From positions 1-16,418 of the forward strand of contig JAZRWA010000002.1 in assembly GCA_045599485.1 (NCBI GenBank): 16,418 bases of DNA, read 5' to 3'. How positions within the stretch are numbered: the first letter of the stretch is position 1; each line of letters opens with the position of its first letter. Origin of the DNA: Clostridia bacterium (GTDB lineage Bacteria > Bacillota > Clostridia > Christensenellales > Aristaeellaceae). Under the pieces are notes generated by a model, which did no database searches, was not told where the DNA came from, and saw nothing but the letters and a program-made list of their open reading frames with translations. A program made the translations under genes and the position numbers. This document shows, piece after piece, positions 672 to 14,786 of this stretch.

Positions 672-1838
672 TTACAGCTTTGCGGCTTCCGCCTGCAGTT
701 TTTCGACGTAATCGGTACGCTCCCAGGTGAAGCTTTCTTCTTCACGGCCGAAGTGACCATAGGCGGCCGTCGCGCGGTAGATGGGACGGCGCAGGTCCAG
801 GCGTTCGATGATGGCGGCGGGACGCATATCAAACACGCGGCTCACAAGATCGGACAGCACATCATCGGCATATTTGCCGGTGCCGTAGGTGTCCACCGTC
901 AGGCTGACGGGCTCGGCAACACCGATGGCGTAAGCGACTTCGATCTGGCAGCGCTCACACAGACCGGCAGCCACCAGATTCTTGGAGGCATGGCGGGCGG
1001 CGTAGGCGGCACTGCGGTCCACCTTGCTGGGATCCTTACCGGAGAAGCAGCCGCCACCGTGGGCGCAGTAGCCGCCGTAGGTGTCCACAATGATCTTGCG
1101 GCCGGTCAGACCGGTATCGCCGGCGGGACCACCGATGACAAAACGGCCGGTGGGGTTGACGTAGTACTTGGTGTTCTCATGCAGCAGCTCGGCGGGAATG
1201 ACCTTTTTGATGACCTCTTCGATCATGGCCTTTTCGATCTCTTCATGGCTGACCGATTCGGCATGCTGCGTGGAAATGACCACCGCATCCACGGCAACGG
1301 GCTTGCCGTCTTCATACGCCACGGTGACCTGGGATTTGCCATCGGGACGCATCCAGGGGCAGGTGCCGTTTTTGCGTACTTCCGTCATGCGGCGGGTGAG
1401 ACGATGCGCCAACGCGATGGGCATGGGCATCAGCTCGGGAGTTTCGGTACAGGCATAGCCGAACATCATGCCCTGGTCGCCGGCGCCCTGCTCATGGCTG
1501 TCGGTGGCGGTGACGCCCATGGAGATATCGGGGCTCTGCTCATGCACAGAGACCATTACACCGCAGGAGTGGCCGTCGAAGCACATATCGCCGTGGGTGT
1601 AGCCGATATCAAGGATCACCTTGCGGGCTATGGATTCGATGTTGATGTTGGCGGCGGTGGTGATTTCGCCCATCACGGTGACAACACCGGTGGTGGCAAA
1701 TGTTTCGCAGGCAACGCGCGCCATGGGGTCGCGGGCGAGAATTTCATCCAGTACGGCATCGGAAATCTGATCGCAGATTTTATCAGGATGACCTTCGGTC
1801 ACGCTTTCGGAGGTAAACAGCTTTCTTACTTTGCTCAT
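672..1838 (-). CDS. metK: S-adenosylmethionine synthetase (methionine adenosyltransferase)
   Basis: 388 aa starting [31 protein letters not shown]. It carries the [12 protein letters not shown] and [19 protein letters not shown] signatures. The RBS GGAAAGGAAAAG sits just upstream of the ATG at 1838. The 68 upstream codons of the tracked ORF overlap the riboswitch and are not coding. Confidence 0.98.
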
Positions 1839-1867
1839 GTTCTTCTTTTCCTTTCCATACAATACGC

Positions 1868-2025
1868 GGACATAAAAAATCCGCTCGCAGCAGACGGGCG
1901 GAATCATTGCTTCATGTCTCGCCTTATCTGTCGGTGTTGCCACCGCCGGAATTAGCACCGCACGTTTTACCGTCGGTTGCCGGGCATCATCGGGCCGTTC
2001 CCTCCGCCACTCTTGATAAGGGATG
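1868..2025 (-). promoter_or_regulatory. SAM-I (S-box) riboswitch with expression platform, upstream of metK
   Basis: The minus strand reads CTTATCAAGAGTGGCGGAGGGAACGGCCCGATGATGCCCGGCAACC...GTGCGGTGCTAATTCCGGC...ACAGATAAGG, which matches the S-box core almost base for base (aptamer about 1922-2022). It is followed by a short GC hairpin (CCGCCC...GAGCGG) and ATTTTTTAT (1872-1880), then the metK RBS. Confidence 0.93.
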
Positions 2026-2042
2026 TTCAGTTGTCGGTGCAT

Positions 2043-2071
2043 ATTATAGTAAAAACATCAGGGACTGTCAA
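2043..2071 (-). promoter_or_regulatory. Sigma-70/SigA-type promoter for the S-box-metK transcript
   Basis: On the minus strand, TTGACA (2071-2066) is followed by a 17-nt spacer and TATAAT (2048-2043), a perfect consensus. The predicted start lies about 15 nt before riboswitch helix P1. Confidence 0.8.
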
Positions 2072-2112
2072 GAGAAAAATATGCCGAATTTGGCAAATAC
2101 GGTAAAAAACAT

Positions 2113-2141
2113 TTGCCGAAAAAGTAAAAAAGCGTTAAGAT
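2113..2141 (+). promoter_or_regulatory. Possible promoter for the DUF1294 gene
   Basis: TTGCCG (2113-2118), a 17-nt spacer, then TAAGAT (2136-2141). Position is appropriate but the match is only partial. Confidence 0.35.
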
Positions 2142-2159
2142 GGGGAAGAGGTGAGAAGA

Positions 2160-2426
2160 ATGAAAATGATTCTGACGGTGATCATGGCAGCGATGAGCCT
2201 GATGGCGTTCGCACTGATGGGCATCGATAAGCACAGGGCAAAAGCGGGAAAATGGCGCATTCGGGAGCGGACGCTGTTCATCGCGGCCCTCTGTCTTGGG
2301 GCCCTTGGCGGCACGGCGGGCATGCGGGTGTTTCATCATAAAACGAAGCACTGGTATTTCAAAGTGTTTTTTCCACTGCTGGCAGTGCTGCAATTTGTTC
2401 TGCTGGTTTGGATCTGGATCAAATAA
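2160..2426 (+). CDS. DUF1294 family small membrane protein
   Basis: MKMILTVIMAAMSLMAFALMGIDKHRAKAGKWRIRERTLFIAALCLGALGGTAGMRVFHHKTKHWYF matches the DUF1294 pattern (IDK..A....WRI.E..L...A..GG..G......HKT.K..F). I prefer the ATG at 2160 over the GTG at 2151 because GGGGAAGAGGTGAG lies directly upstream. Confidence 0.85.
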   Translation: MKMILTVIMAAMSLMAFALMGIDKHRAKAGKWRIRERTLFIAALCLGALGGTAGMRVFHHKTKHWYFKVFFPLLAVLQFVLLVWIWIK

Positions 2427-2430
2427 AAAA

Positions 2431-2462
2431 GGCGGGAGGAAGCGTTTTCCTCCCGTCTTTTT
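2431..2462. terminator. Bidirectional rho-independent terminator shared by convergent genes
   Basis: Stem CGGGAGGAA (2433-2441) pairs with TTCCTCCCG (2447-2455) across a 5-nt loop. An A-run (2424-2430) precedes it and a T-run (2457-2462) follows. It lies between the DUF1294 stop (2426) and the Gx-transporter stop (2477). Confidence 0.85.
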
Positions 2463-2476
2463 GGCAGGCATGGATA

Positions 2477-2995
2477 TCAGTTGAAGCGGATCTTTGAGGA
2501 TTTGAGGTGGCGGATGGCAATGTTGGCCGCCAGACCGATGAGCAGACCGGTGACCAGACCGACCACCAGCAGGATGGCCAGATAATAGATCAGTTTTGGG
2601 GTCTGAAGCACCAGCATGGCCATCAGCACCTGACCGGCGTTGTGCATGGCACCGCCCGCCATGCTGACGGTGACCATGTGCAGCCCTTTGACATGGCTGA
2701 GCAGGGACATGGCGATCATGCTGAGCAGACCGCCGGCGGCGGCATACATCATGGCGCTCACGCCGCTGAACATCAGGCCGGACAGCACGATTTTGAGGGC
2801 CATCAGGGCGAACGCGGTGGGAATATCCAGCAAATAGATGGCAAAGATCAATACGCCGTTGGAGAGCCCCAGTTTGATGCCCGGAATGCCGGGGACGGCG
2901 GGCAGCATGCTTTCCACATAACCGAGCACCAGCATCAGCGCGGTGAGCAGGCCGCAGAGAGCAATGCGCTGAACCGAATGTTTATGTTTGGCCAT
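2477..2995 (-). CDS. Gx transporter family membrane protein (Hpre_diP_synt_I / PF07456-like)
   Basis: 172 aa with about 5 TM segments. The N-terminal RIALCGLLTALMLVLGYVESMLP...IPGIKLGLSN is typical of this family, and it has the usual partnership with an upstream NusG-domain-II gene. RBS AAAGGAG. Confidence 0.75.
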   Translation of the reverse strand: MAKHKHSVQRIALCGLLTALMLVLGYVESMLPAVPGIPGIKLGLSNGVLIFAIYLLDIPTAFALMALKIVLSGLMFSGVSAMMYAAAGGLLSMIAMSLLSHVKGLHMVTVSMAGGAMHNAGQVLMAMLVLQTPKLIYYLAILLVVGLVTGLLIGLAANIAIRHLKSSKIRFN

Positions 2996-3013
2996 AAGGG
3001 CTCCTTTCGGAAA

Positions 3014-3559
3014 TTATTGGGCGTTCATCATTGCCAAGATCTCATCGGGGGTGTAGAGTTCAGCAACCACCTGATTCGGCAGACAGATGATCATGTTATA
3101 CAGGATGCGGGTATCTTTGTTTTCAAGCGTGACCTCGCCCTGATGGACACAGTCTTGTGAGTCACAGCTGGCGGATTCCATGTACATGCCGTTGGGAGTG
3201 ATATGCAGGTAATTTTCCAGCTGCTTTCCGGAGCCATCCGCGGCGGACTGGACGATGGGGAAGGTGTAAGCTGTCTCAGAAGGCAGCGGCAGCCAGTACT
3301 TGTCTTTGCTTTGAACCGTCAGCAGGATATAGCCGGCAGCGGGCTCAGCGGTGGCTTGCGGTTCCGCGGTGAAAGCATCCTCGGGAGAGACGGAAGGTAC
3401 AGCGGTTGCGACAGGCGCGGGGGTGGGGGTGAAGAGCTCTGGCAGCGGCGGTACAGCGGTGGAAATGCCGCGAACACCGATGAAGAGCAGAAGGGCTGCA
3501 ACGGCAAGGATGCCGCCGATGACCCAGATGTTTTTGTTGCTGAAAGGTTTGCGGGACAT
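3014..3559 (-). CDS. NusG domain II-containing (DUF1312/PF07009-like) membrane-anchored protein
   Basis: The start at 3559 (MSRKPFSNKNIWVIGGILAVAALLLF, one TM anchor) is preceded by GGAGGAATT. The C-terminal CDSQDCVHQGEV....ICLPNQVV matches the C..q.C...G......ivClPn..v motif of NusG_II proteins. Confidence 0.75.
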   Translation of the reverse strand: MSRKPFSNKNIWVIGGILAVAALLLFIGVRGISTAVPPLPELFTPTPAPVATAVPSVSPEDAFTAEPQATAEPAAGYILLTVQSKDKYWLPLPSETAYTFPIVQSAADGSGKQLENYLHITPNGMYMESASCDSQDCVHQGEVTLENKDTRILYNMIICLPNQVVAELYTPDEILAMMNAQ

Positions 3560-3612
3560 AATTCCTCCATAGACAAAAGGGATAAAACGGCAGAGGCGTT
3601 TCCTCTGAAATA

Positions 3613-3641
3613 ACAATAAATGATTTGTTTGAATTTGTCAA
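3613..3641 (-). promoter_or_regulatory. Probable promoter of the NusG_II/Gx operon
   Basis: On the minus strand, TTGACA (3641-3636) is followed by a 17-nt spacer and TATTGT (3618-3613). A short hairpin (CAGAGG-AAACG-CCTCTG) follows in the 5' UTR. Confidence 0.5.
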
Positions 3642-3658
3642 TCCATTTATATCGATAC

Positions 3659-3690
3659 CAAAAATCCGCAGCCCGAGGGACTGCGGATTG
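3659..3690 (-). terminator. Rho-independent terminator after the aldo/keto reductase gene
   Basis: The minus strand reads AATCCGCAG-TCCCTCGGG-CTGCGGATT followed by TTTTGG. The stem arms are 3681-3689 and 3663-3671. Confidence 0.85.
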
Positions 3691-3705
3691 TGTGTTGGTG
3701 GAAGA

Positions 3706-4812
3706 TTATTGGAGCAGACCTGCCAGCTCCGCCATGACGGAGGGCGTATCGATGTTCTGCGGGCAATGACCAGTGCAGGCACCGCAGCCGACGCAATCAG
3801 CAGGTTTACCGACGGATTCGATCTTTTCGGCAGCCCTTAGCGCACCGCGGCCATCCACCTTGTAGGCGTTATAGAGGTTAAGGTATTCGGGAATGTTGAT
3901 CTCCGCCGGGCAGCCGTCGCAGCAGTAGCGGCAGGAGGTGCAGGGAACCTGTACCTGATGACGGAACATTTCGCAGGACTTGAAAAGGAGTGCGGTCTCC
4001 TCATCCGTCAGGGGATTACCGTCAAAGGTGTTGAGGTTATCCTGAAGCTGGTCCATGCTGCTCATGCCGCTCAAAATGACATGTACGGCAGGCAATGTGC
4101 GCACAAAGCGCAGGGACCAGGAAGCGATGCTCCAATCGGGATGGGCGGCCTTCAGCGGGGCTTCGGCTTCGGGGGTCAGCGCCGCGAGACGTCCGCCACG
4201 AACCGGCTCCATGACCATGATGGGGATGCTGCGCTTGGCAAGAATATCGTATTCCTGCTTGGAGGTGCCGTAGAGCCAGTCATAATAATTGATCTGCAGC
4301 TGAGCAAAATCCCAGGCGTGATGATCGGCAAAGCGGGTCAAGGTTTCAAGAGAAGCGTGGCTGGAGAAGCCGAGGTAACGGATACGCCCCAGACGCTTCT
4401 GCTCCAGGAAATACTCGATGGCACCGCTGCAAAGGTAGGAATCGATGTTGTTGTCGAGCAAGCAATGGATCAGATAAAAATCGATGCGATCGGTCTGAAG
4501 ACGCTGCAGCTGCTCTTCGAACACAGCTTTGTAATCGGGGTTGGCACCGATGAAATACTTGGAAGCCAGATAGAAGCTGTCACGGGGATGCTTGGTCATG
4601 CAGGCGCCCAGGCATTTTTCGGATTCGCCGCCGCTGTAGGTATAGGCGGTGTCAAAATAGTTGATGCCGTTTTCATAAGCGCTGTCGATGATCTGATGGG
4701 CGGCCGGATAATCGATGGCGGCTTTGGGGTCGGCGGGGTTGACGGTGGGAAGACGCATGTTGCCCATGCCGAGCGTGGACAGGCGAATGCCTTGATAATC
4801 CTTGAACTGCAT
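3706..4812 (-). CDS. Aldo/keto reductase with C-terminal 2x[4Fe-4S] ferredoxin-type module (COG1453-like)
   Basis: The start at 4812 (MQFKDYQGIRLSTLGMGNMRLP) is preceded by GAAGGGAGA. AKR core motifs are present (GINYFDTAYTYSGGESE, RIDFYLIHC). The C-terminus carries two Cys clusters, CTSCRYCCDGCP and CVGCGACTGHCP. Confidence 0.88.
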   Translation of the reverse strand: MQFKDYQGIRLSTLGMGNMRLPTVNPADPKAAIDYPAAHQIIDSAYENGINYFDTAYTYSGGESEKCLGACMTKHPRDSFYLASKYFIGANPDYKAVFEEQLQRLQTDRIDFYLIHCLLDNNIDSYLCSGAIEYFLEQKRLGRIRYLGFSSHASLETLTRFADHHAWDFAQLQINYYDWLYGTSKQEYDILAKRSIPIMVMEPVRGGRLAALTPEAEAPLKAAHPDWSIASWSLRFVRTLPAVHVILSGMSSMDQLQDNLNTFDGNPLTDEETALLFKSCEMFRHQVQVPCTSCRYCCDGCPAEINIPEYLNLYNAYKVDGRGALRAAEKIESVGKPADCVGCGACTGHCPQNIDTPSVMAELAGLLQ

Positions 4813-4851
4813 TGGAGATCTCCCTTCGGGATAATTTACACTTTCGTATTT

Positions 4852-4880
4852 TTTATACAATAAAATGCGCCGAAGGTCAA
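4852..4880 (-). promoter_or_regulatory. Probable promoter of the aldo/keto reductase gene
   Basis: On the minus strand, TTGACC (4880-4875) is followed by a 17-nt spacer and TATAAA (4857-4852). Confidence 0.55.
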
Positions 4881-4912
4881 GAAAAACTTCGGAGCTGACA
4901 CGAAAACGGTGA

Positions 4913-4948
4913 TAAAAAAAGAACAGGTCAGTTCAGGACTGCCTGCTC
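4913..4948 (-). terminator. Rho-independent terminator of the infC-rpmI-rplT operon
   Basis: The minus strand reads AGCAGGCAG-TCCTGAA-CTGACCTGTT (9 bp with one bulge) followed by CTTTTTTT. It starts 16 nt after the rplT stop. Confidence 0.8.
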
Positions 4949-4963
4949 TTTCTTTTATAAGGC

Positions 4964-5314
4964 TCAGGCCTGCTTGGCGGTTTCGGCCAGCTTGGCGAAA
5001 GCTTCGGGATCGCTCACAGCGAGATCAGCCAGCATCTTGCGGTTGATGTCGATGTTGGCCTTCTTCAGGCCGGCGATCATGGTGGAGTAGTTCATGCCGT
5101 ACAGGTGAGCGGCGGCATTGATGCGGGTGGTCCACAGGCTGCGGAACTCACGCTTACGCAGCTTGCGGCCGGTGTAAGCGTAGCGCAGGGAGCGGCGGAC
5201 CTGCTCACTGGCGGTGCGGTACTGCTTGGACTTCGCGCCAAAATAGCCCTTCGCCAGCTTGAGCGCCTTACGGCGCTTCTTATGGGCGGTTACAGCCCTT
5301 TTAATACGTGCCAT
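4964..5314 (-). CDS. rplT: 50S ribosomal protein L20
   Basis: [39 protein letters not shown]... is a canonical L20 sequence. RBS AAGGAGG. Confidence 0.98.
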
Positions 5315-5341
5315 GGTTAATCCTCCTTGCCGGAAATGGGC

Positions 5342-5542
5342 TTATTTGTACGGAATCAGCGTGCGGATGGTAGCGGCTTCGGCATTGTTCTGCAGAACGC
5401 CGCCCTTACGCATATGACGGATACGCTTGGTGGTCTTCTTGTTCAGAATGTGGTTGCAGTTCATGCTCTTGTGCTTGACTTTGCCGGTCTTGGTCAGGGA
5501 GAAGCGCTTTGCTGCACCGCGATGGGTCTTTTGCTTAGGCAT
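5342..5542 (-). CDS. rpmI: 50S ribosomal protein L35
   Basis: MPKQKTHRGAAKRFSLTKTGKVKHK... is a canonical L35 sequence. RBS GGAAGGAGG. Confidence 0.97.
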   Translation of the reverse strand: MPKQKTHRGAAKRFSLTKTGKVKHKSMNCNHILNKKTTKRIRHMRKGGVLQNNAEAATIRTLIPYK

Positions 5543-5567
5543 GAGGTTTCCTCCTTCCGGGAATTAT

Positions 5568-6128
5568 TCAGGCCTTGGGCTCCGCTGCGGGGCGGGCCTT
5601 TTCGGCCTTTGCGGGTTTATCCGCCTTGGGGGCCAGAATCATAATCATGTGGCGGCCGTCAAGAGCAGGCCGTTTTTCAACGACGGAGACGTCCTTGGTG
5701 CGATCAATAAAATCCTGCATGACCTGCAGACCGATCTCGGAATGCGTGATCTGTCTGCCGCGGAAGCGGATGCTGACCTTGACCTTGTCACCGCCGGTGA
5801 GGAATTTGATGGCATTCTTGGCTTTGGTCTGCACATCGTTTTCTTCAATGGTGGCGGAAAGCTGCACTTCCTTGATGGAAATGACCTTCTGGTTTTTGCG
5901 CATATCGCGCTCACGCTTGGACTGCTCATAACGGTATTTGTCGTAGTCCATCAGCTTGCACACGGGGGGAATGGCGGTCGGGGAGATCTTTACCAGATCC
6001 AAACCGGCTTCTTCTGCCAGCTCCATTGCGCGCGCGGTGGGAAAGACACCCATCTGAGCGCCGTCAGCGCCAATCAGACGTACCTCGCGGTCACGGATTT
6101 CATCATTGATCATTAATTCGGCGGCTAT
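5568..6128 (-). CDS. infC: Translation initiation factor IF-3, probably starting at a non-canonical ATA codon
   Basis: INDEIRDREVRLIGADGAQMGV...VKISP...PPVCKLMDYDKYRYE is a canonical IF-3 sequence. The first ATG (6113) has no SD at usable distance. GGAGGTG (6143-6137) lies 8-10 nt upstream of an in-frame ATA (6128-6126), giving the N-terminus (M)AAELMINDEIR. The 3' end and protein identity are certain; the start codon is inferred. Confidence 0.9.
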   Translation of the reverse strand: MAAELMINDEIRDREVRLIGADGAQMGVFPTARAMELAEEAGLDLVKISPTAIPPVCKLMDYDKYRYEQSKRERDMRKNQKVISIKEVQLSATIEENDVQTKAKNAIKFLTGGDKVKVSIRFRGRQITHSEIGLQVMQDFIDRTKDVSVVEKRPALDGRHMIMILAPKADKPAKAEKARPAAEPKA

Positions 6129-10485: not shown

Positions 10486-10515
10486 TTGACAACAGGGGGC
10501 GGATATGGTTAAATT
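10486..10515 (+). promoter_or_regulatory. Promoter of the T-box-controlled operon
   Basis: TTGACA (10486-10491) is followed by a 17/18-nt spacer and TTAAAT/TAAATT (10509-10515). The predicted start lies about 10 nt before the stem I K-turn. Confidence 0.65.
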
Positions 10516-10530
10516 AATGCCACAACCTGT

Positions 10531-10797
10531 TGCGATGACGGAATTATGGTTCCGGATTTCAACGCCCAGAGAGTTGGCGGATGGTGCGAGCCAATGCGTG
10601 AAACGGAAACCAGTCTCCCTCCCGAGCAGATGATGCGAAAGCGTTGGCCGTTAGCATGATCCGATTGGCCCCGTTAAAGGCTATGGACTTGATTGAGTCC
10701 GAGAGAACGTTTTTTTCCGGAACGGAAAGAAGCGTCCAGGGTGGTACAACGAAGTGATTTTCGCCCCTGAAACCGATATGGCTTCAGGGGCGTTTTT
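10531..10797 (+). promoter_or_regulatory. T-box leader (tRNA-sensing riboswitch) with intrinsic terminator
   Basis: Stem I elements: K-turn halves TGCGATGA (10531-10538) and GAGCA (10624-10628), AG bulge AGAGAG (10568-10573), and a distal loop containing GGTGCGA (10583-10589) closed by TTGGC/GCCAA. An F-box-like CCGTTA sits at 10648-10653. The T-box sequence CAGGGTGGTACAACG is at 10737-10751, and its GGG...CGAA can pair with TTCG.CCC of the terminator's 5' arm to form the antiterminator. The terminator is CGCCCCTGAA-(10 nt)-TTCAGGGGCG plus TTTTT (10762-10797). Confidence 0.92.
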
Positions 10798-10828
10798 CTA
10801 TCGATTTTAAGCTAAAGGAGAAGATACC

Positions 10829-12244
10829 ATGAGCGTTGTCAGACTGGCCGACATGACCATGCGTCAGAGCGGCAAAAATGTGCATTTCAGCCTTAACTTC
10901 AGAGAAAAGCTGGAGCTGGCCAAGCTGCTGGACCGGCTGGGCGTATCGGTAATTGAAGTCAGCGCCTTTGCCAACCCGAAGGTGGACCGACTGCTGGTCA
11001 AGTCGATCTGCTCTGCTGTAAAGGACAGCACCGTGGCGGTCTCTGTGGGGCTGAGCGAAGAAAACATCGCGCCCGTTCGCAGTGCTATGGAGGAATGCGC
11101 TCATCCGCGACTGCAGGTGACGGCTCCCGTCAGCGCCGTGCAGATGGAGTACCTCGCCGGCAAAAAACCCGCCGCCATGCTGGAAACGATTACCCGGCTG
11201 GTGAGCGCCTGCCATGCGGTTTGCCCTGATGTGGAACTGATCGCCGAAGACGCGACCCGTGCCGACAGCGCTTTTCTTTACGACGCTGTGCGCGCTGCCA
11301 TTGCGGCCGGGGCTTCCACGGTGACGCTGTGTGATGCCGCGGGCAATATGCTGCCCGATCAGTTTGCTTCCTTTATTAATGATGTAAAGGAAAATGTGCC
11401 CGAACTTCAGCAGATCACGCTGGGTGTGGCCTGCAGCAATGACCTTTCGATGGCCGACAGCTGCGCTGTTTCCGCCATCCGCTGCGGCGCGGGGGAGATC
11501 AAGTGTGCCGCGCACGCTGTGAACACCGTCAATCTGGGCAATGTGGCCCGTATTCTGGCAGTCAAGGGGACGGATTTTGACGCTGCGACCGATGTGACCA
11601 CCACGCAGATGAACCGTACGCTGGCTCAGATCTCCCGCCTGTGTGAGAGCGAGCGCAGTGAGAATTCCCCCTTCGATAACGGCGTACAGGCGGCGGACGG
11701 CACCTTCATGACCGTTCATGATGATATCACCGCCGTGATGAAGGCCGTCAACAAGCTGGGCTACGATCTGTCCGAGGAGGACAGCGTGAAGGTGTTTGAA
11801 GCCTTTGGACGCATTGCCGCCAAGAAGGAAACGGTCAACATCAAGGAACTGGACGCCATTGTGGCTTCCGCCGCGATGCAGGTTCCTTCTACTTATAAGC
11901 TGGAAAGCTATGTGATCAACACCGGCAACACCATCAGCGCCACGGCCCACATGAAGCTGAACAAGAACGGTGTGATGCTGGAGGGCATCAGCCTGGGTGA
12001 CGGTCCCATCGATGCCGCCTTCCTGGCGGTGGAGCAGATCGCCGGACGCCATTATGAACTGGATGATTTCCAGATCCAGGCCGTGACCGAAGGCCATGAG
12101 GCTATGGGCGAAGCAGTGGTCAAGCTGCGCAATGAGGGCAAGCTGTTCTCCGGCCGCGGCATTTCCACCGACATTGTGGGCGCGAGCATTCATGCCTATA
12201 TCAGTGCGCTGAACAAGATCGTTTACGAAGAAGCCGCTCTGTGA
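10829..12244 (+). CDS. LeuA/HMGL-like (DRE-TIM metallolyase fold) protein with LeuA_dimer regulatory domain; catalytic metal ligands substituted
   Basis: 471 aa, RBS AAAGGAGAAG. It is colinear with 2-isopropylmalate/citramalate synthases: IEVSAF vs IEAGFP, VELIAEDATRAD vs VEFSAEDAGRTD, and C-terminal GDGPIDAAFLAVEQI and GRGISTDIVGASIHAYISALNKI. However, DTTLRDGEQ reads DMTMRQSGK, HCHND reads ACSND (11429-11437), and GIGERAGN reads AVNTVNLGN. Confidence 0.85.
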   Translation: MSVVRLADMTMRQSGKNVHFSLNFREKLELAKLLDRLGVSVIEVSAFANPKVDRLLVKSICSAVKDSTVAVSVGLSEENIAPVRSAMEECAHPRLQVTAPVSAVQMEYLAGKKPAAMLETITRLVSACHAVCPDVELIAEDATRADSAFLYDAVRAAIAAGASTVTLCDAAGNMLPDQFASFINDVKENVPELQQITLGVACSNDLSMADSCAVSAIRCGAGEIKCAAHAVNTVNLGNVARILAVKGTDFDAATDVTTTQMNRTLAQISRLCESERSENSPFDNGVQAADGTFMTVHDDITAVMKAVNKLGYDLSEEDSVKVFEAFGRIAAKKETVNIKELDAIVASAAMQVPSTYKLESYVINTGNTISATAHMKLNKNGVMLEGISLGDGPIDAAFLAVEQIAGRHYELDDFQIQAVTEGHEAMGEAVVKLRNEGKLFSGRGISTDIVGASIHAYISALNKIVYEEAAL

Positions 12245-12269
12245 CGGCGAGACGGAAAGGAGATAACAA

Positions 12270-14786
12270 ATGAATCTTTCTTTTTCGACCCGCGGCTGGC
12301 AGGAATGCAGCTGGCAGGAGAACACCGAGACTGCGGTGACCATGCGCTTTCAGGGCATTGAACTTTATAATGTGACGGAGGATGAGCAGCTGACGGGCCG
12401 CGGCGGTCCTTTGCATAAATACAACACAGCAGCGACCGTGCGTGAGCTGAAGGAAAAGAAACTGACGGTGCCCTGCATCGACTCTTCCTGCGACATCTCG
12501 GTGCCGGGCAGTGTCGAGACCGTGAAAGCCATGCTGGAGCATGCCCGCAACATTCAGTGCCCCTGCGTGGCAGTAACGGCTCTGAAGGATAACGAAGAGA
12601 CGGTGCGTGCTGCATTGACCGAGCTGGTGCCGCTGGCGGCGGTGCAGCAGGTGACGATCCTGATCAAGACCACCGGCATTTATGCCGATACCGCCCGCCT
12701 GCGCGCGCTGCTGGACGATTTTGCCTGCGATGAGATCGCGGCGCTGTGGAGCATGCACCATCCCTATCGCCTGGCGCATGAATCCGCTGACACGACCATC
12801 AAGAATCTGGGCGGCTATGTCCGCCATGTGCATCTGCGTGACTCTGACGACGAGGGCGAAAACCAGCTCATCGGTGAAGGCACCCTGCCTGTCAAGGACA
12901 TGATGCGCGCCCTCAGCTCCATTGACTACGACGGCTTCATCAGCCTGGAATGGAAGCCCATGTGGATGGAGGAGCTGCCGGACCGCGAGGTCATTTTCCC
13001 GTACTTTGTCAACTACATGAACCGCTTTGAGCAGACCCGCGGCAAGAAAAAGGAGCTTTACGATAACGCTGCCCACACCGGCAAGTTCATCTGGAAGAAG
13101 GATCAGCTGATCAACCTGACCTTCCCGCAGGTGCTCGACCGTGTGGTGGAGGAGTTCCCCGACCAGTACTGCTTCAAATATACCACGCTGGATTATACCC
13201 GCACCTACGAGGAATTCCGCGAGGATGTGGACAACTTTGCGGCGGCGCTGATCTCGCTGGGCGTGAAGCGCGGCAGCAAGGTGGCCATCTGGGCGACCAA
13301 CGTGCCTGCCTGGTACATCACCTTCTGGGCTGCGACCAAGATCGGCGCTGTGCTGGTGACGGTCAATACCGCGTACAAGATCCATGAGGCGGAGTATCTG
13401 CTGCGCCAGAGCGATACCCATACGCTGGTCATGATCGAATCCTGTCTGGATTCCAATTATAAAGAGATCATCCGCGAACTGTGCCCGGAGATCGATTCCG
13501 CCCGTCCCGGCCAGCCGCTGCACTGCAAGAAGCTGCCTTTCCTGCGCAACGTGATCACTTCGGGCTTCCGCATGAAGGGCTGCCTGACGCTGGAGGAGGC
13601 GATGGAGCGTTCTTCTCTGGTGCCCCGTGAGGAAGTGCTGCGCATGGCGGCGCAGGTGCGCCCCGATGATGTGTGCAACATGCAGTACACCAGCGGTACC
13701 ACCGGCTTCCCCAAGGGCGTCATGTTGACCCATTACAACGTGGTCAATGACGGCAAACAGATCGGCGACCGCATGGACCTGTCCACGGCGGACCGTATGA
13801 TGATCCAGGTGCCCATGTTCCACTGCTTTGGCATGGTGCTTTCGATGACCAGCAGCATGACGCATGGCACCACCATGTGTCCGATGCCGTATTTCTCGGC
13901 GAAGGTGAGCCTGGCTTGCATCAATCAGGAGCGCATCACCTGCTTCAATGGCGTACCGACGATGTTTATTGCCATGTTCAACCATGCCGATTACCGCAAG
14001 ACGGACTTTTCCTACATGCGTACGGGCATCATGGCCGGCAGCGGCTGCCCGCCCGAACTGATGCGGCGCGCCGCGCAGCCCGATGAGATGCACATGCTGG
14101 ACATCGTCAGCGTGTACGGTCAGACCGAATCCGCCCCCGGCAGCACCATGAGTGCCTGCGGCGACCCGCTGGACCTGCGCGTCAACACAGTCGGCTATGC
14201 CTTCCCGCATGTTGAATGCAAGGTCATCGACCCCGAAACGGGCGAGGAAGTGCCCGTGGGCGTGAACGGCGAGTTCTGCTCCCGCGGCTACAACATCATG
14301 AAGGGCTATTACAAGATGCCCGAGGCGACCGCCGCCGCCATTGACAAGGATGGCTGGCTGCACAGCGGTGACCTGGCCTGCCGTGATGAACAGAACTGCT
14401 TCCGCATCACGGGACGCCTGAAGGATATGATCATCCGCGGCGGTGAAAACATTTATCCCAAGGAAATTGAGGAATTCATCTACACTCATCCCGCAGTCAA
14501 GGATGTGCAGGTCATCGGTGTGCCGGATAAGAAGTACGGTGAGGAGATCATGGCGTGCGTCATCCTCAAGGAGCCCGGCTCTGTGACGGTGGAGGAGATG
14601 CTGACCTACATCAAGGCTTCTCTGGCCCGCCACAAGGTGCCGCGCTACATCGAGTTTGTGGACGCCTTCCCGATGAACGCCGCCGGCAAGATCCTGAAAT
14701 ATAAGATGCGCGAGGAAGCCACCGAGCGTCTGGGCCTCAAGGGCGCGGCAGGCATCGATACCGCGTCTCCCGGCAAAAAGGAATAA
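12270..14786 (+). CDS. Fusion protein: N-terminal xylose-isomerase-like TIM barrel (sugar phosphate isomerase/epimerase family, about aa 1-250) plus C-terminal AMP-forming acyl-CoA synthetase (YngI/ACSF2-like, about aa 280-838)
   Basis: RBS GGAAAGGAG lies 7 nt before the ATG. The N-terminal part has HVHLRD, EGTLPV and YDGFISLEW, typical of AP_endonuc_2/PF01261. The C-terminal part has all adenylate-forming motifs: YTSGTTGFPKG (13686-13718), YGQTES, GEFCSRG, GWLHSGD, GRLKDMIIRGGENIYPKEIE and PMNAAGKILK. The frame is uninterrupted, and no internal start is associated with the junction. Confidence 0.88.
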   Translation: MNLSFSTRGWQECSWQENTETAVTMRFQGIELYNVTEDEQLTGRGGPLHKYNTAATVRELKEKKLTVPCIDSSCDISVPGSVETVKAMLEHARNIQCPCVAVTALKDNEETVRAALTELVPLAAVQQVTILIKTTGIYADTARLRALLDDFACDEIAALWSMHHPYRLAHESADTTIKNLGGYVRHVHLRDSDDEGENQLIGEGTLPVKDMMRALSSIDYDGFISLEWKPMWMEELPDREVIFPYFVNYMNRFEQTRGKKKELYDNAAHTGKFIWKKDQLINLTFPQVLDRVVEEFPDQYCFKYTTLDYTRTYEEFREDVDNFAAALISLGVKRGSKVAIWATNVPAWYITFWAATKIGAVLVTVNTAYKIHEAEYLLRQSDTHTLVMIESCLDSNYKEIIRELCPEIDSARPGQPLHCKKLPFLRNVITSGFRMKGCLTLEEAMERSSLVPREEVLRMAAQVRPDDVCNMQYTSGTTGFPKGVMLTHYNVVNDGKQIGDRMDLSTADRMMIQVPMFHCFGMVLSMTSSMTHGTTMCPMPYFSAKVSLACINQERITCFNGVPTMFIAMFNHADYRKTDFSYMRTGIMAGSGCPPELMRRAAQPDEMHMLDIVSVYGQTESAPGSTMSACGDPLDLRVNTVGYAFPHVECKVIDPETGEEVPVGVNGEFCSRGYNIMKGYYKMPEATAAAIDKDGWLHSGDLACRDEQNCFRITGRLKDMIIRGGENIYPKEIEEFIYTHPAVKDVQVIGVPDKKYGEEIMACVILKEPGSVTVEEMLTYIKASLARHKVPRYIEFVDAFPMNAAGKILKYKMREEATERLGLKGAAGIDTASPGKKE

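Follow-up and report, generated by a model that had tools for sequence, protein, structure and literature searches.

A LeuA-like protein without metal ligands is encoded with an acyl-CoA ligase fusion behind a leucine T-box in Clostridia

Introduction

What can a homologue of isopropylmalate synthase (IPMS, LeuA) still do once its active site has been taken apart and its regulatory domain has been left in place? The question is raised by a gene at positions 10829-12244 of a 16,418-nt stretch of DNA from a Clostridia bacterium of the Aristaeellaceae (contig JAZRWA010000002.1 of assembly GCA_045599485.1). We refer to this whole stretch, which is ~55% GC and rich in shadow open reading frames (ORFs), as the window; positions are on its plus strand unless stated otherwise. 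A first-pass annotation, made from the sequence alone, had described the product as a member of the LeuA/HMGL family in which the three metal ligands are replaced, and had taken it for a pseudoenzyme or a paralogue with a new function, not for a gene in decay. That proposal is supported by the analysis below, in which the loss proved to be family-wide and the gene to be under purifying selection. We designate the protein pseudo-LeuA, for LeuA-like pseudo-isopropylmalate synthase. The account that we favour, and to which we give slightly less than an even chance, is that its gene belongs to an isovalerate-salvage operon in which pseudo-LeuA acts as a leucine-binding, non-catalytic partner of the ligase encoded by the following gene.

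Domains and overall fold

The coding sequence of pseudo-LeuA (10829-12244) is an intact ORF of 471 amino acids, preceded by an AAGGAG ribosome-binding site (10815-10820) located 8 nt 5' of the ATG, in agreement with the full-length, well-initiated ORF of the first-pass annotation. An ORF of 519 amino acids on the minus strand (10784-12343) is one of the many long shadow ORFs in the window. The two domains expected from the first reading were both matched by Pfam, HMGL-like (PF00682) at residues 4-228 with 108 bits (~1e-31), and LeuA_dimer (PF08502) at residues 336-464 with 110 bits (~1e-31), the latter covering 129 of 131 model positions. The top NCBIfam match was the LeuA equivalog NF002086, at 290.9 bits against a cut-off of 532, and TIGR00973 gave 268 bits against a cut-off of 599. 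The LeuA equivalogs (cut-offs 532-748) align to the protein in two separate stretches, and the protein lies far under every LeuA, CimA and NifV equivalog cut-off in NCBIfam.

The AlphaFold2 model (pLDDT 89.2) has the LeuA fold. Structural comparison with Foldseek revealed that the modelled barrel superimposes on the catalytic domain of Listeria LeuA (3ewb) at 1.6 Å with a TM score of 0.93, and the full-length matches include M. tuberculosis LeuA. The sole disordered stretch of the model, residues 275-288, is the site of a missing segment, HESGIH, described below.

A dismantled active site

The substitutions were mapped by residue-level HMMER alignments to the LeuA structures 3ewb, 3eeg and 3rmj, supplemented by column counts for the His-x-His and N-I-P-D-T-V-G regions. 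Comparison between pseudo-LeuA and these structures revealed that (i) M-R-Q-S-G aligns with T-L-R-D-G, which places Gln13 (codon 10865-10867; Arg12-Gln13 at 10862-10867) at the position of the metal-binding Asp of L-R-D-G; (ii) A-C-S-N-D aligns with H-C-H-[DN]-D, and Ala201 and Ser203 (Ala201-Cys202-Ser203, 11429-11437) stand in place of the two His ligands of His-x-His; (iii) the region aligned with the G-I-G-E-R-A-G-N loop reads A-V-N-T-V-N-L-G-N (within A-H-A-V-N-T-V-N-L-G-N, 11510-11542) and is 4 residues shorter; (iv) T-L-C-D-A-A-G (11324-11344) takes the place of N-I-P-D-T-V-G, whose Thr and Asn are lost, the substrate-binding Thr of I-P-D-T-V-G being replaced by Ala170 of L-C-D-A-A-G; and (v) the His of T-S-x-I-H is replaced by Gln105. 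We take the Thr and Asn of N-I-P-D-T-V-G to be contacts of the 2-oxoacid, as in M. tuberculosis LeuA. The three ligand replacements (Asp to Gln, His to Ala and His to Ser) and the exchange of the G-I-G-E-R-A-G-N loop had been called from the sequence at exactly these positions, and the structure alignments upheld both calls; they place an Asp/His/His set nowhere else in the protein.

A further change is a deletion. The family profile skips ~36 residues of the MAM synthase structure 6e1j at '..vHesgiHqdgilk..', that is to say, the subdomain-I segment with the catalytic His. This deletion was read against 6e1j, the only homologue aligned through that region, which was taken as comparator because P0247 has an aberrant subdomain-I region.

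Other elements of the active site are present. Arg12, Glu43 (of I-E-V) and the stretch E140-D-A-T-R-A-D are all found, so the I-E-V Glu and the A-E-D-A-x-R-x-D strand are kept, as first noted. The accompanying statement on a retained catalytic Arg is correct for this protein and does not extend to its relatives: the close orthologues have Arg or Lys, and in the wider family the Arg of L-R-D varies freely; the Glu of I-E varies there too. At the catalytic Arg and Glu sites (R80 and E218 in M. tuberculosis), Arg12 and Glu140 stand here, and the close orthologues have R/K and mostly Asp, respectively. A single mutation of R80 or E218 abolishes the activity of M. tuberculosis IPMS (PMC10464499). 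Because the three ligands, several of the 2-oxoacid contacts and the HESGIH segment are gone, pseudo-LeuA is predicted to be incapable of metal-dependent Claisen condensation.

The C-terminal LeuA_dimer (allosteric) domain (11834-12220), with its G-D-G-P loop at 11996-12007, is retained as a whole, as the first-pass annotation had recognised from the motifs. No other part of the protein evolves as slowly, the mean distance being 0.38 vs 0.73 for the barrel. The G-D-G-P loop is invariant in the family, G390 and G392 being invariant columns, and the domain aligns to the region of M. tuberculosis LeuA that contains the G-N-G-P loop. The G-N-G-P loop is a hot spot of leucine-feedback-resistant mutations in yeast and bacterial IPMS.

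Distribution of the family and selection

A protein search over 5.8 billion proteins returned thousands of matches, the best 120 of which (63-99% identity, 466-485 amino acids) were taken as the close set. Among these and the window protein, position 13 is Gln in 115/121 sequences and Asp in 0/121. Position 201 is Ser, Ala, Gly or Cys (Glu in one sequence) and never His (0/121), and position 203 is Lys in 75, Ser in 28, Arg in 10, Ala in 8 and His in none. A HMMER scan of 1.84 billion cluster representatives gave 362 clusters (50% identity) at E <= 1e-30; the three metal ligands are missing from every one of ~105 full-length representatives, the most distant of which has 31% identity. At the edge of the list stands a canonical-looking LeuA of 516 amino acids with TLRDGG and HCHDDLG (35% identity). 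The substitutions are thus not specific to one strain, a possibility that the first-pass annotation had set against its own reading. The gene also shows purifying selection, which the annotation had named as a check, with 106 synonymous and 6 nonsynonymous codon differences from a 99%-identical orthologue. Because none of the ~225 relatives examined has the three ligands and the codon differences are so distributed, pseudo-LeuA is, as judged from these alignments, a selected family under strongly purifying selection and not a lesion.

At least 593 carriers of a relative were confirmed in a scan of 185,579 species genomes. The best 80 genome matches are metagenome-assembled genomes (MAGs) from gut or rumen, assigned to Faecousia/Oscillospiraceae, Acutalibacteraceae, Christensenellales, Lachnospiraceae and Eggerthellaceae. 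Of two orthologues named by NCBI, the first is an 'alpha-isopropylmalate synthase regulatory domain-containing protein' and the second a 'hypothetical protein'; full-text literature searches returned nothing on a pseudo-LeuA family or its operon.

A separate observation concerns P0268, a LeuA homologue of 511 amino acids. It scores 569 bits against the NCBIfam LeuA equivalog cut-off of 532 and so passes, and it reads T-L-C-D-G-E and I-R-A-Y-N-D-L-G, without the Arg and both His. P0268 may represent a second degenerate LeuA, of independent origin, and automatic annotation would name it a true synthase.

The leucine T-box leader

The 400-nt gap 5' of the pseudo-LeuA gene holds a promoter-like site, a T-box leader and a terminator, in that order. 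The promoter-like site (10486-10515), composed of TTGACA, an 18-nt spacer and TAAATT, is a consensus match only, at 10/12 positions. The T-box leader RNA (Rfam RF00230; 10526-10771) includes stem I, the AGAGA and GGUGCGA distal motifs, the specifier loop and, at 10738-10747, the T-box sequence AGGGUGGUAC. The intrinsic terminator (10762-10797), a 10-bp GC-rich stem followed by a U run (-22.9 kcal/mol, z -5.5), overlaps the 3' half of the antiterminator. Against RF00230, whose gathering score is 93, the leader in the window scores 58.1 bits (E 3.4e-12), and two orthologous leaders score 93.6 bits, which reaches the threshold, and 88.5 bits.

A custom stem-I covariance model was used to find leaders at related loci and placed a T-box directly 5' of the pseudo-LeuA gene in 64 loci. 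The specifier codon in the window, CUC (10615-10617, in the specifier loop of stem I), falls in a conserved alignment column in which the 64 leaders have CUG (39), CUC (24) or CUA (1), and both flanking bases are variable. The predicted specifier is therefore a leucine codon. The serine triplet UCU, which overlaps CUC, was considered and rejected: the base before CU is U, A, C or G, and C-U-N is constant in the 64 leaders. The UGGU at 10742-10745 is compatible with an A73 discriminator base; the discriminator of tRNA-Ser is G73, a poor fit to UGGU.

The partner gene encodes a TIM barrel-acyl-CoA ligase fusion

The leucine T-box is followed by a two-gene operon, in which the pseudo-LeuA gene comes first. 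The second gene (12270-14786), 25 nt 3' of the first, encodes a fusion of 838 amino acids, in which a xylose-isomerase-like TIM barrel (residues 1-~255) precedes an acyl-CoA ligase (residues ~280-838). Pfam assigned AP_endonuc_2, AMP-binding and AMP-binding_C; the best NCBIfam match was PRK12583 ('fatty acid CoA ligase family'), with a score (663 bits) under its cut-off of 832. The ligase motifs SGTTGFPKG and GKILK are intact in the translation.

The association of the two genes is close. The fusion lies directly 3' of the pseudo-LeuA gene in 84/84 related loci, at a spacing of 0-30 nt or with overlap in most of them and ~175 nt at the maximum, and its ligase part shows 71-88% identity across the 84 loci. 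An overlapping fusion gene also follows in a family member of 33% identity, and the pair is kept on orthologous contigs whose flanks are unrelated. A search with the N-terminal barrel of the ligase found no pseudo-LeuA protein fused to the TIM-ligase among the matches listed, all of which are <500 amino acids and represent partial sequences or N-terminal fragments.

The model of the N-terminal domain of the fusion (12270-13034; pLDDT 92) gave only generic sugar epimerase/isomerase folds in Foldseek (TM ~0.7, <=16% identity), and no function is assignable to this barrel for that reason. Its expected first metal-binding Glu (K133) is Lys in 62/76 orthologues, and the Asp of W-D-x-H-H is Ser (S161) only in the window, being Asp in 74/76. 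Because of the Lys at the first-ligand position and the Ser at the W-D-x-H-H Asp, the N-terminal barrel of the fusion may also have an altered metal site. When the ligase is controlled for, distances of the pseudo-LeuA barrel and the fusion barrel still co-vary (partial r 0.45, p 0.001).

Candidate branched-chain salvage genes in related loci

Related loci were viewed with 6-8 kb flanks. Neighbouring T-boxes there comprise 46 with an AUC (Ile) specifier and 15 with GUC or GUA (Val); examples are L014 2856-2959 and 5454-5559, both on the minus strand, and L001 12079-12320. These Ile/Val T-boxes precede fusions of ~760 amino acids composed of HTH_19, Cupin_2 and AMP-binding domains. The architecture, in which an enzyme carries a helix-turn-helix (HTH) DNA-binding domain together with a cupin, is unusual and appears to be undescribed. 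The best NCBIfam match of these HTH-cupin ligases is MbcS (NF047394), the staphylococcal methylbutyryl-CoA synthetase. Purified MbcS activates 2-methylbutyrate and isobutyrate, and isovalerate is a poor substrate (PMC10026030), a preference that fits the presence of another class of ligase in the Leu arm.

One locus, L016, presents the genes in a single string: a HTH-cupin ligase, a CbiA-like gene, Fer4, VorB, beta, gamma, IlvE, the pseudo-LeuA gene and the fusion. The CbiA-like P-loop protein, ferredoxin subunit, VorB, beta and gamma subunits and IlvE occupy 1521-5813 of that locus, between the HTH-cupin ligase and the pseudo-LeuA gene; VorB scores 533 bits (cut-off 399) and IlvE 497 bits (cut-off 307) in NCBIfam. 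The CbiA-like protein, of 229 amino acids, recurs in 27 loci and has no NCBIfam match. Candidate salvage genes of the VOR (2-oxoacid:ferredoxin oxidoreductase) and IlvE type occur within 6 kb in many loci and are absent from many others. Reductive carboxylation of branched-chain fatty acids to amino acids has been known from labelling work since the 1960s. In rumen microbes, the formation of leucine from isovalerate by carboxylation is long known (PMC7356843).

Proposed role of the operon

We propose that the operon salvages isovalerate into leucine, a reading that is moderately supported. Uncharged tRNA-Leu would lead to the predicted read-through of the leader and thereby to expression of the operon. 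The ligase would convert isovalerate, a substrate assigned from context, to isovaleryl-CoA; a VorB-type VOR would reductively carboxylate isovaleryl-CoA to 2-oxoisocaproate; and IlvE would transaminate 2-oxoisocaproate to leucine. The operon would thus form the Leu arm of a three-armed salvage of branched-chain fatty acids, in which MbcS-like ligases behind Ile and Val T-boxes would form the other two arms. As to pseudo-LeuA itself, we favour the role of a non-catalytic partner to the ligase, with leucine as its ligand. It would carry out no catalysis, would bind leucine through the retained allosteric domain and would dock, probably through contact between the barrels, on the ligase fusion, which would allow feedback control or scaffolding; this role of pseudo-LeuA is the least certain step of the account. 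A role as regulatory partner is favoured because the effector domain is the best-conserved part of the protein, because the Ile/Val ligases bear putative sensor modules of their own (HTH-cupin), because the pathway needs no additional chemistry and, as weak evidence, because the TIM-barrel distances co-vary. The invariant adjacency of the two genes and the co-varying barrels lend the proposed complex indirect support.

A wider formulation, possible although in our view rather doubtful, is that pseudo-LeuA is a LeuA-derived, leucine-sensing allosteric subunit of an isovalerate-CoA ligase and that, together with the Ile/Val HTH-cupin ligases, VOR and IlvE, it belongs to a regulon, controlled by T-boxes and end products, that underlies the way in which Clostridia of the gut and rumen convert branched-chain fatty acids to branched-chain amino acids by reductive carboxylation.

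Several points weigh against this account. The complex, the binding of leucine and the isovalerate substrate are inferred from context, and the co-variation of the barrel distances is weak evidence because linked genes share a phylogeny. No VOR, IlvE or Ile/Val ligase genes were found near the operon in the window, where its other neighbours are an ABC transporter and a SH3/Big_2 protein, and the salvage context comes from relatives. The role of the N-terminal TIM barrel of the ligase is unaccounted for. The remodelled pocket of pseudo-LeuA is conserved in the close orthologues (Q13, T166, C168, D169, D141 and R144), with mostly Lys at position 203, and could be a new ligand site or support new chemistry rather than being an empty shell. 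On the side of regulation, the T-box in the window is under the Rfam gathering threshold and has a mismatch in the lower stem, the specifier codon is followed by a base other than the conserved purine usually seen there, and no T-box was detected with the stem-I covariance model at the Actinobacterial (Eggerthellaceae) members. The pair of pseudo-LeuA and TIM-ligase genes is present there, at 52-55% identity, in gut MAGs of the Eggerthellaceae/Coriobacteriales (L052, L055, L058, L075, L079 and L082); its occurrence in these MAGs, without a detectable T-box, suggests that the pair has been transferred horizontally and is regulated differently there.

Alternative explanations

The strongest competitor, which we consider unlikely and yet of real weight, takes the conserved pocket as a sign of a neofunctionalised enzyme. 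The remodelled barrel, possibly with the N-terminal barrel of the ligase, would catalyse a new metal-independent or differently liganded reaction on the ligase-made acyl-CoA or on a leucine precursor, and the C-terminal domain would provide feedback control of the new activity. Conservation at >=63% identity is indeed high, with Q13 in 115/121, T166 in 119/121, C168 in 120/121, and D169, D141, T143 and R144 in 121/121 sequences; Lys stands at position 203, the site of the former His, in 75/121 sequences and at the putative first metal ligand of the partner barrel in most orthologues (62/76), the two barrels co-vary, and the whole gene is under purifying selection. However, in the wider family positions 12, 13, 43, 201 and 203 hold many unrelated residues with no common catalytic set, position 203 is Ser rather than Lys in the window protein, the HESGIH segment is deleted, and the rate of evolution in the barrel is double that in the allosteric domain; moreover, given VOR and IlvE, the route from isovaleryl-CoA to leucine needs no extra step. 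The conservation of the allosteric domain above all other parts of the protein would also suit a non-catalytic sensor of leucine or 2-oxoisocaproate with another target, such as VOR, IlvE, a transporter or a transcription factor, or a pure scaffold without a ligand response, and in some loci the pseudo-LeuA gene comes right after vor and ilvE in one gene string. We think this quite improbable: the TIM-ligase fusion is the only invariant neighbour, in 84/84 loci and in the 33%-identity member tested, mostly at a spacing of 0-30 nt or with overlap, and many loci, the window among them, lack VOR and IlvE.

That pseudo-LeuA might be a working isopropylmalate or citramalate synthase with other metal residues, the leucine T-box merely controlling an ordinary leuA, is very improbable. 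Such a reading could appeal to the retained LeuA fold and domain order, to the Leu T-box as a normal regulator of leu genes, and to the presence of Arg12, Glu43 and Glu140 in the window protein. It conflicts with the absence of the three ligands from every family member examined, the replacement of the Thr, Asn and His substrate contacts, the deletion of the HESGIH segment and the scores far under all LeuA, CimA and NifV equivalog cut-offs, and there are no leuBCD genes adjacent to the pseudo-LeuA gene. As for a decaying pseudogene or strain-specific lesion, nothing beyond the loss of catalytic residues speaks for it; the intact ORF, the 106 synonymous vs 6 nonsynonymous differences from a near relative, the hundreds of full-length orthologues with the same losses and the high-confidence predicted fold leave it with practically no probability. 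Among these explanations, an isovalerate-salvage operon in which pseudo-LeuA serves the ligase as a leucine-binding partner is the one we retain.

Other features of the window

A S-adenosylmethionine (SAM) riboswitch (RF00162; 1921-2022, minus strand; 81.8 bits against a gathering score of 44.4) forms the leader of metK. Because this riboswitch lies in the metK leader, the listed ORF at 672-2042 is over-extended, and MetK probably starts in truth at the internal MSKVRKLF.... Further along the minus strand (2477-3616 and 3706-4860), a gene for a Hpre_diP_synt_I-family membrane protein stands beside that of a NusG_II-domain protein, with an aldo/keto reductase-4Fe-4S dicluster fusion adjoining. 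The Hpre_diP_synt_I, NusG_II and aldo/keto reductase genes are ordinary neighbours, unrelated to pseudo-LeuA.

Significance and comparison with known systems

If the account that we favour is true, pseudo-LeuA would be a clear case of a pseudoenzyme derived from a DRE-TIM metallolyase, in which the chemistry was discarded and the effector domain kept, apparently to serve another enzyme. It would point to an undescribed control of leucine synthesis from isovalerate in gut bacteria. The clusters of Leu, Ile and Val T-box ligases, VOR and IlvE are candidate genes for the conversion of isovalerate, 2-methylbutyrate and isobutyrate to amino acids, a conversion that matters for rumen nutrition and gut cross-feeding. 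On the practical side, metabolic reconstructions can mistake pseudo-LeuA genes for leuA, which would lead to false predictions of leucine prototrophy.

With LeuA itself (EC 2.3.3.13, a DRE-TIM metallolyase; 3ewb, 3rmj and 1sr9/3fig), pseudo-LeuA shares the HMGL-like TIM barrel, the helical linker, the LeuA_dimer domain built from a pair of beta-beta-beta-alpha modules with a G-x-G-P loop, the association with leucine supply and the control by a Leu T-box. It differs by the loss of the ligands, the GERAGN loop, the Thr, Asn and His contacts and the HESGIH segment. It is also ~45 residues shorter, is paired with an acyl-CoA ligase fusion rather than with leuBCD, and falls under every LeuA model cut-off. 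Its descent resembles that of MAM synthase (6e1j), which likewise arose from IPMS by neofunctionalisation and is among the best sequence and structure matches. By contrast, it was the regulatory domain that MAM synthase lost and the catalytic site that it retained, so that the pseudo-LeuA family is its mirror image.

The leader agrees with the RF00230 T-boxes of leuS and ilv-leu operons in the stem I specifier loop, the UGGU, the terminator/antiterminator switch and the leucine codon CUC. It stands before a ligase operon and not before the gene of a synthetase, a biosynthetic enzyme or a transporter, and it is non-canonical in its S-turn (AGUA/GAA) and in the purine that follows the codon. Among named relatives, the nearest to the ligases behind the Ile/Val T-boxes is MbcS of S. 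aureus (NF047394), an enzyme that activates branched short-chain acids of exogenous origin. It feeds fatty-acid synthesis and is poor on isovalerate, whereas the ligase of the Leu arm belongs to another clade (PRK12583-like), has a TIM barrel and is encoded with a dead LeuA as partner gene.

The closest parallel in concept is HisZ, an inactive HisRS paralogue that serves as the allosteric subunit of the short-form ATP-phosphoribosyltransferase. The likeness lies in concept only: in both cases catalysis is lost, a ligand-binding capacity is kept, and the protein is encoded beside the enzyme proposed as its target. Fold and pathway are unrelated, and the complex and the regulation, which have been demonstrated for HisZ, are inferred for pseudo-LeuA.

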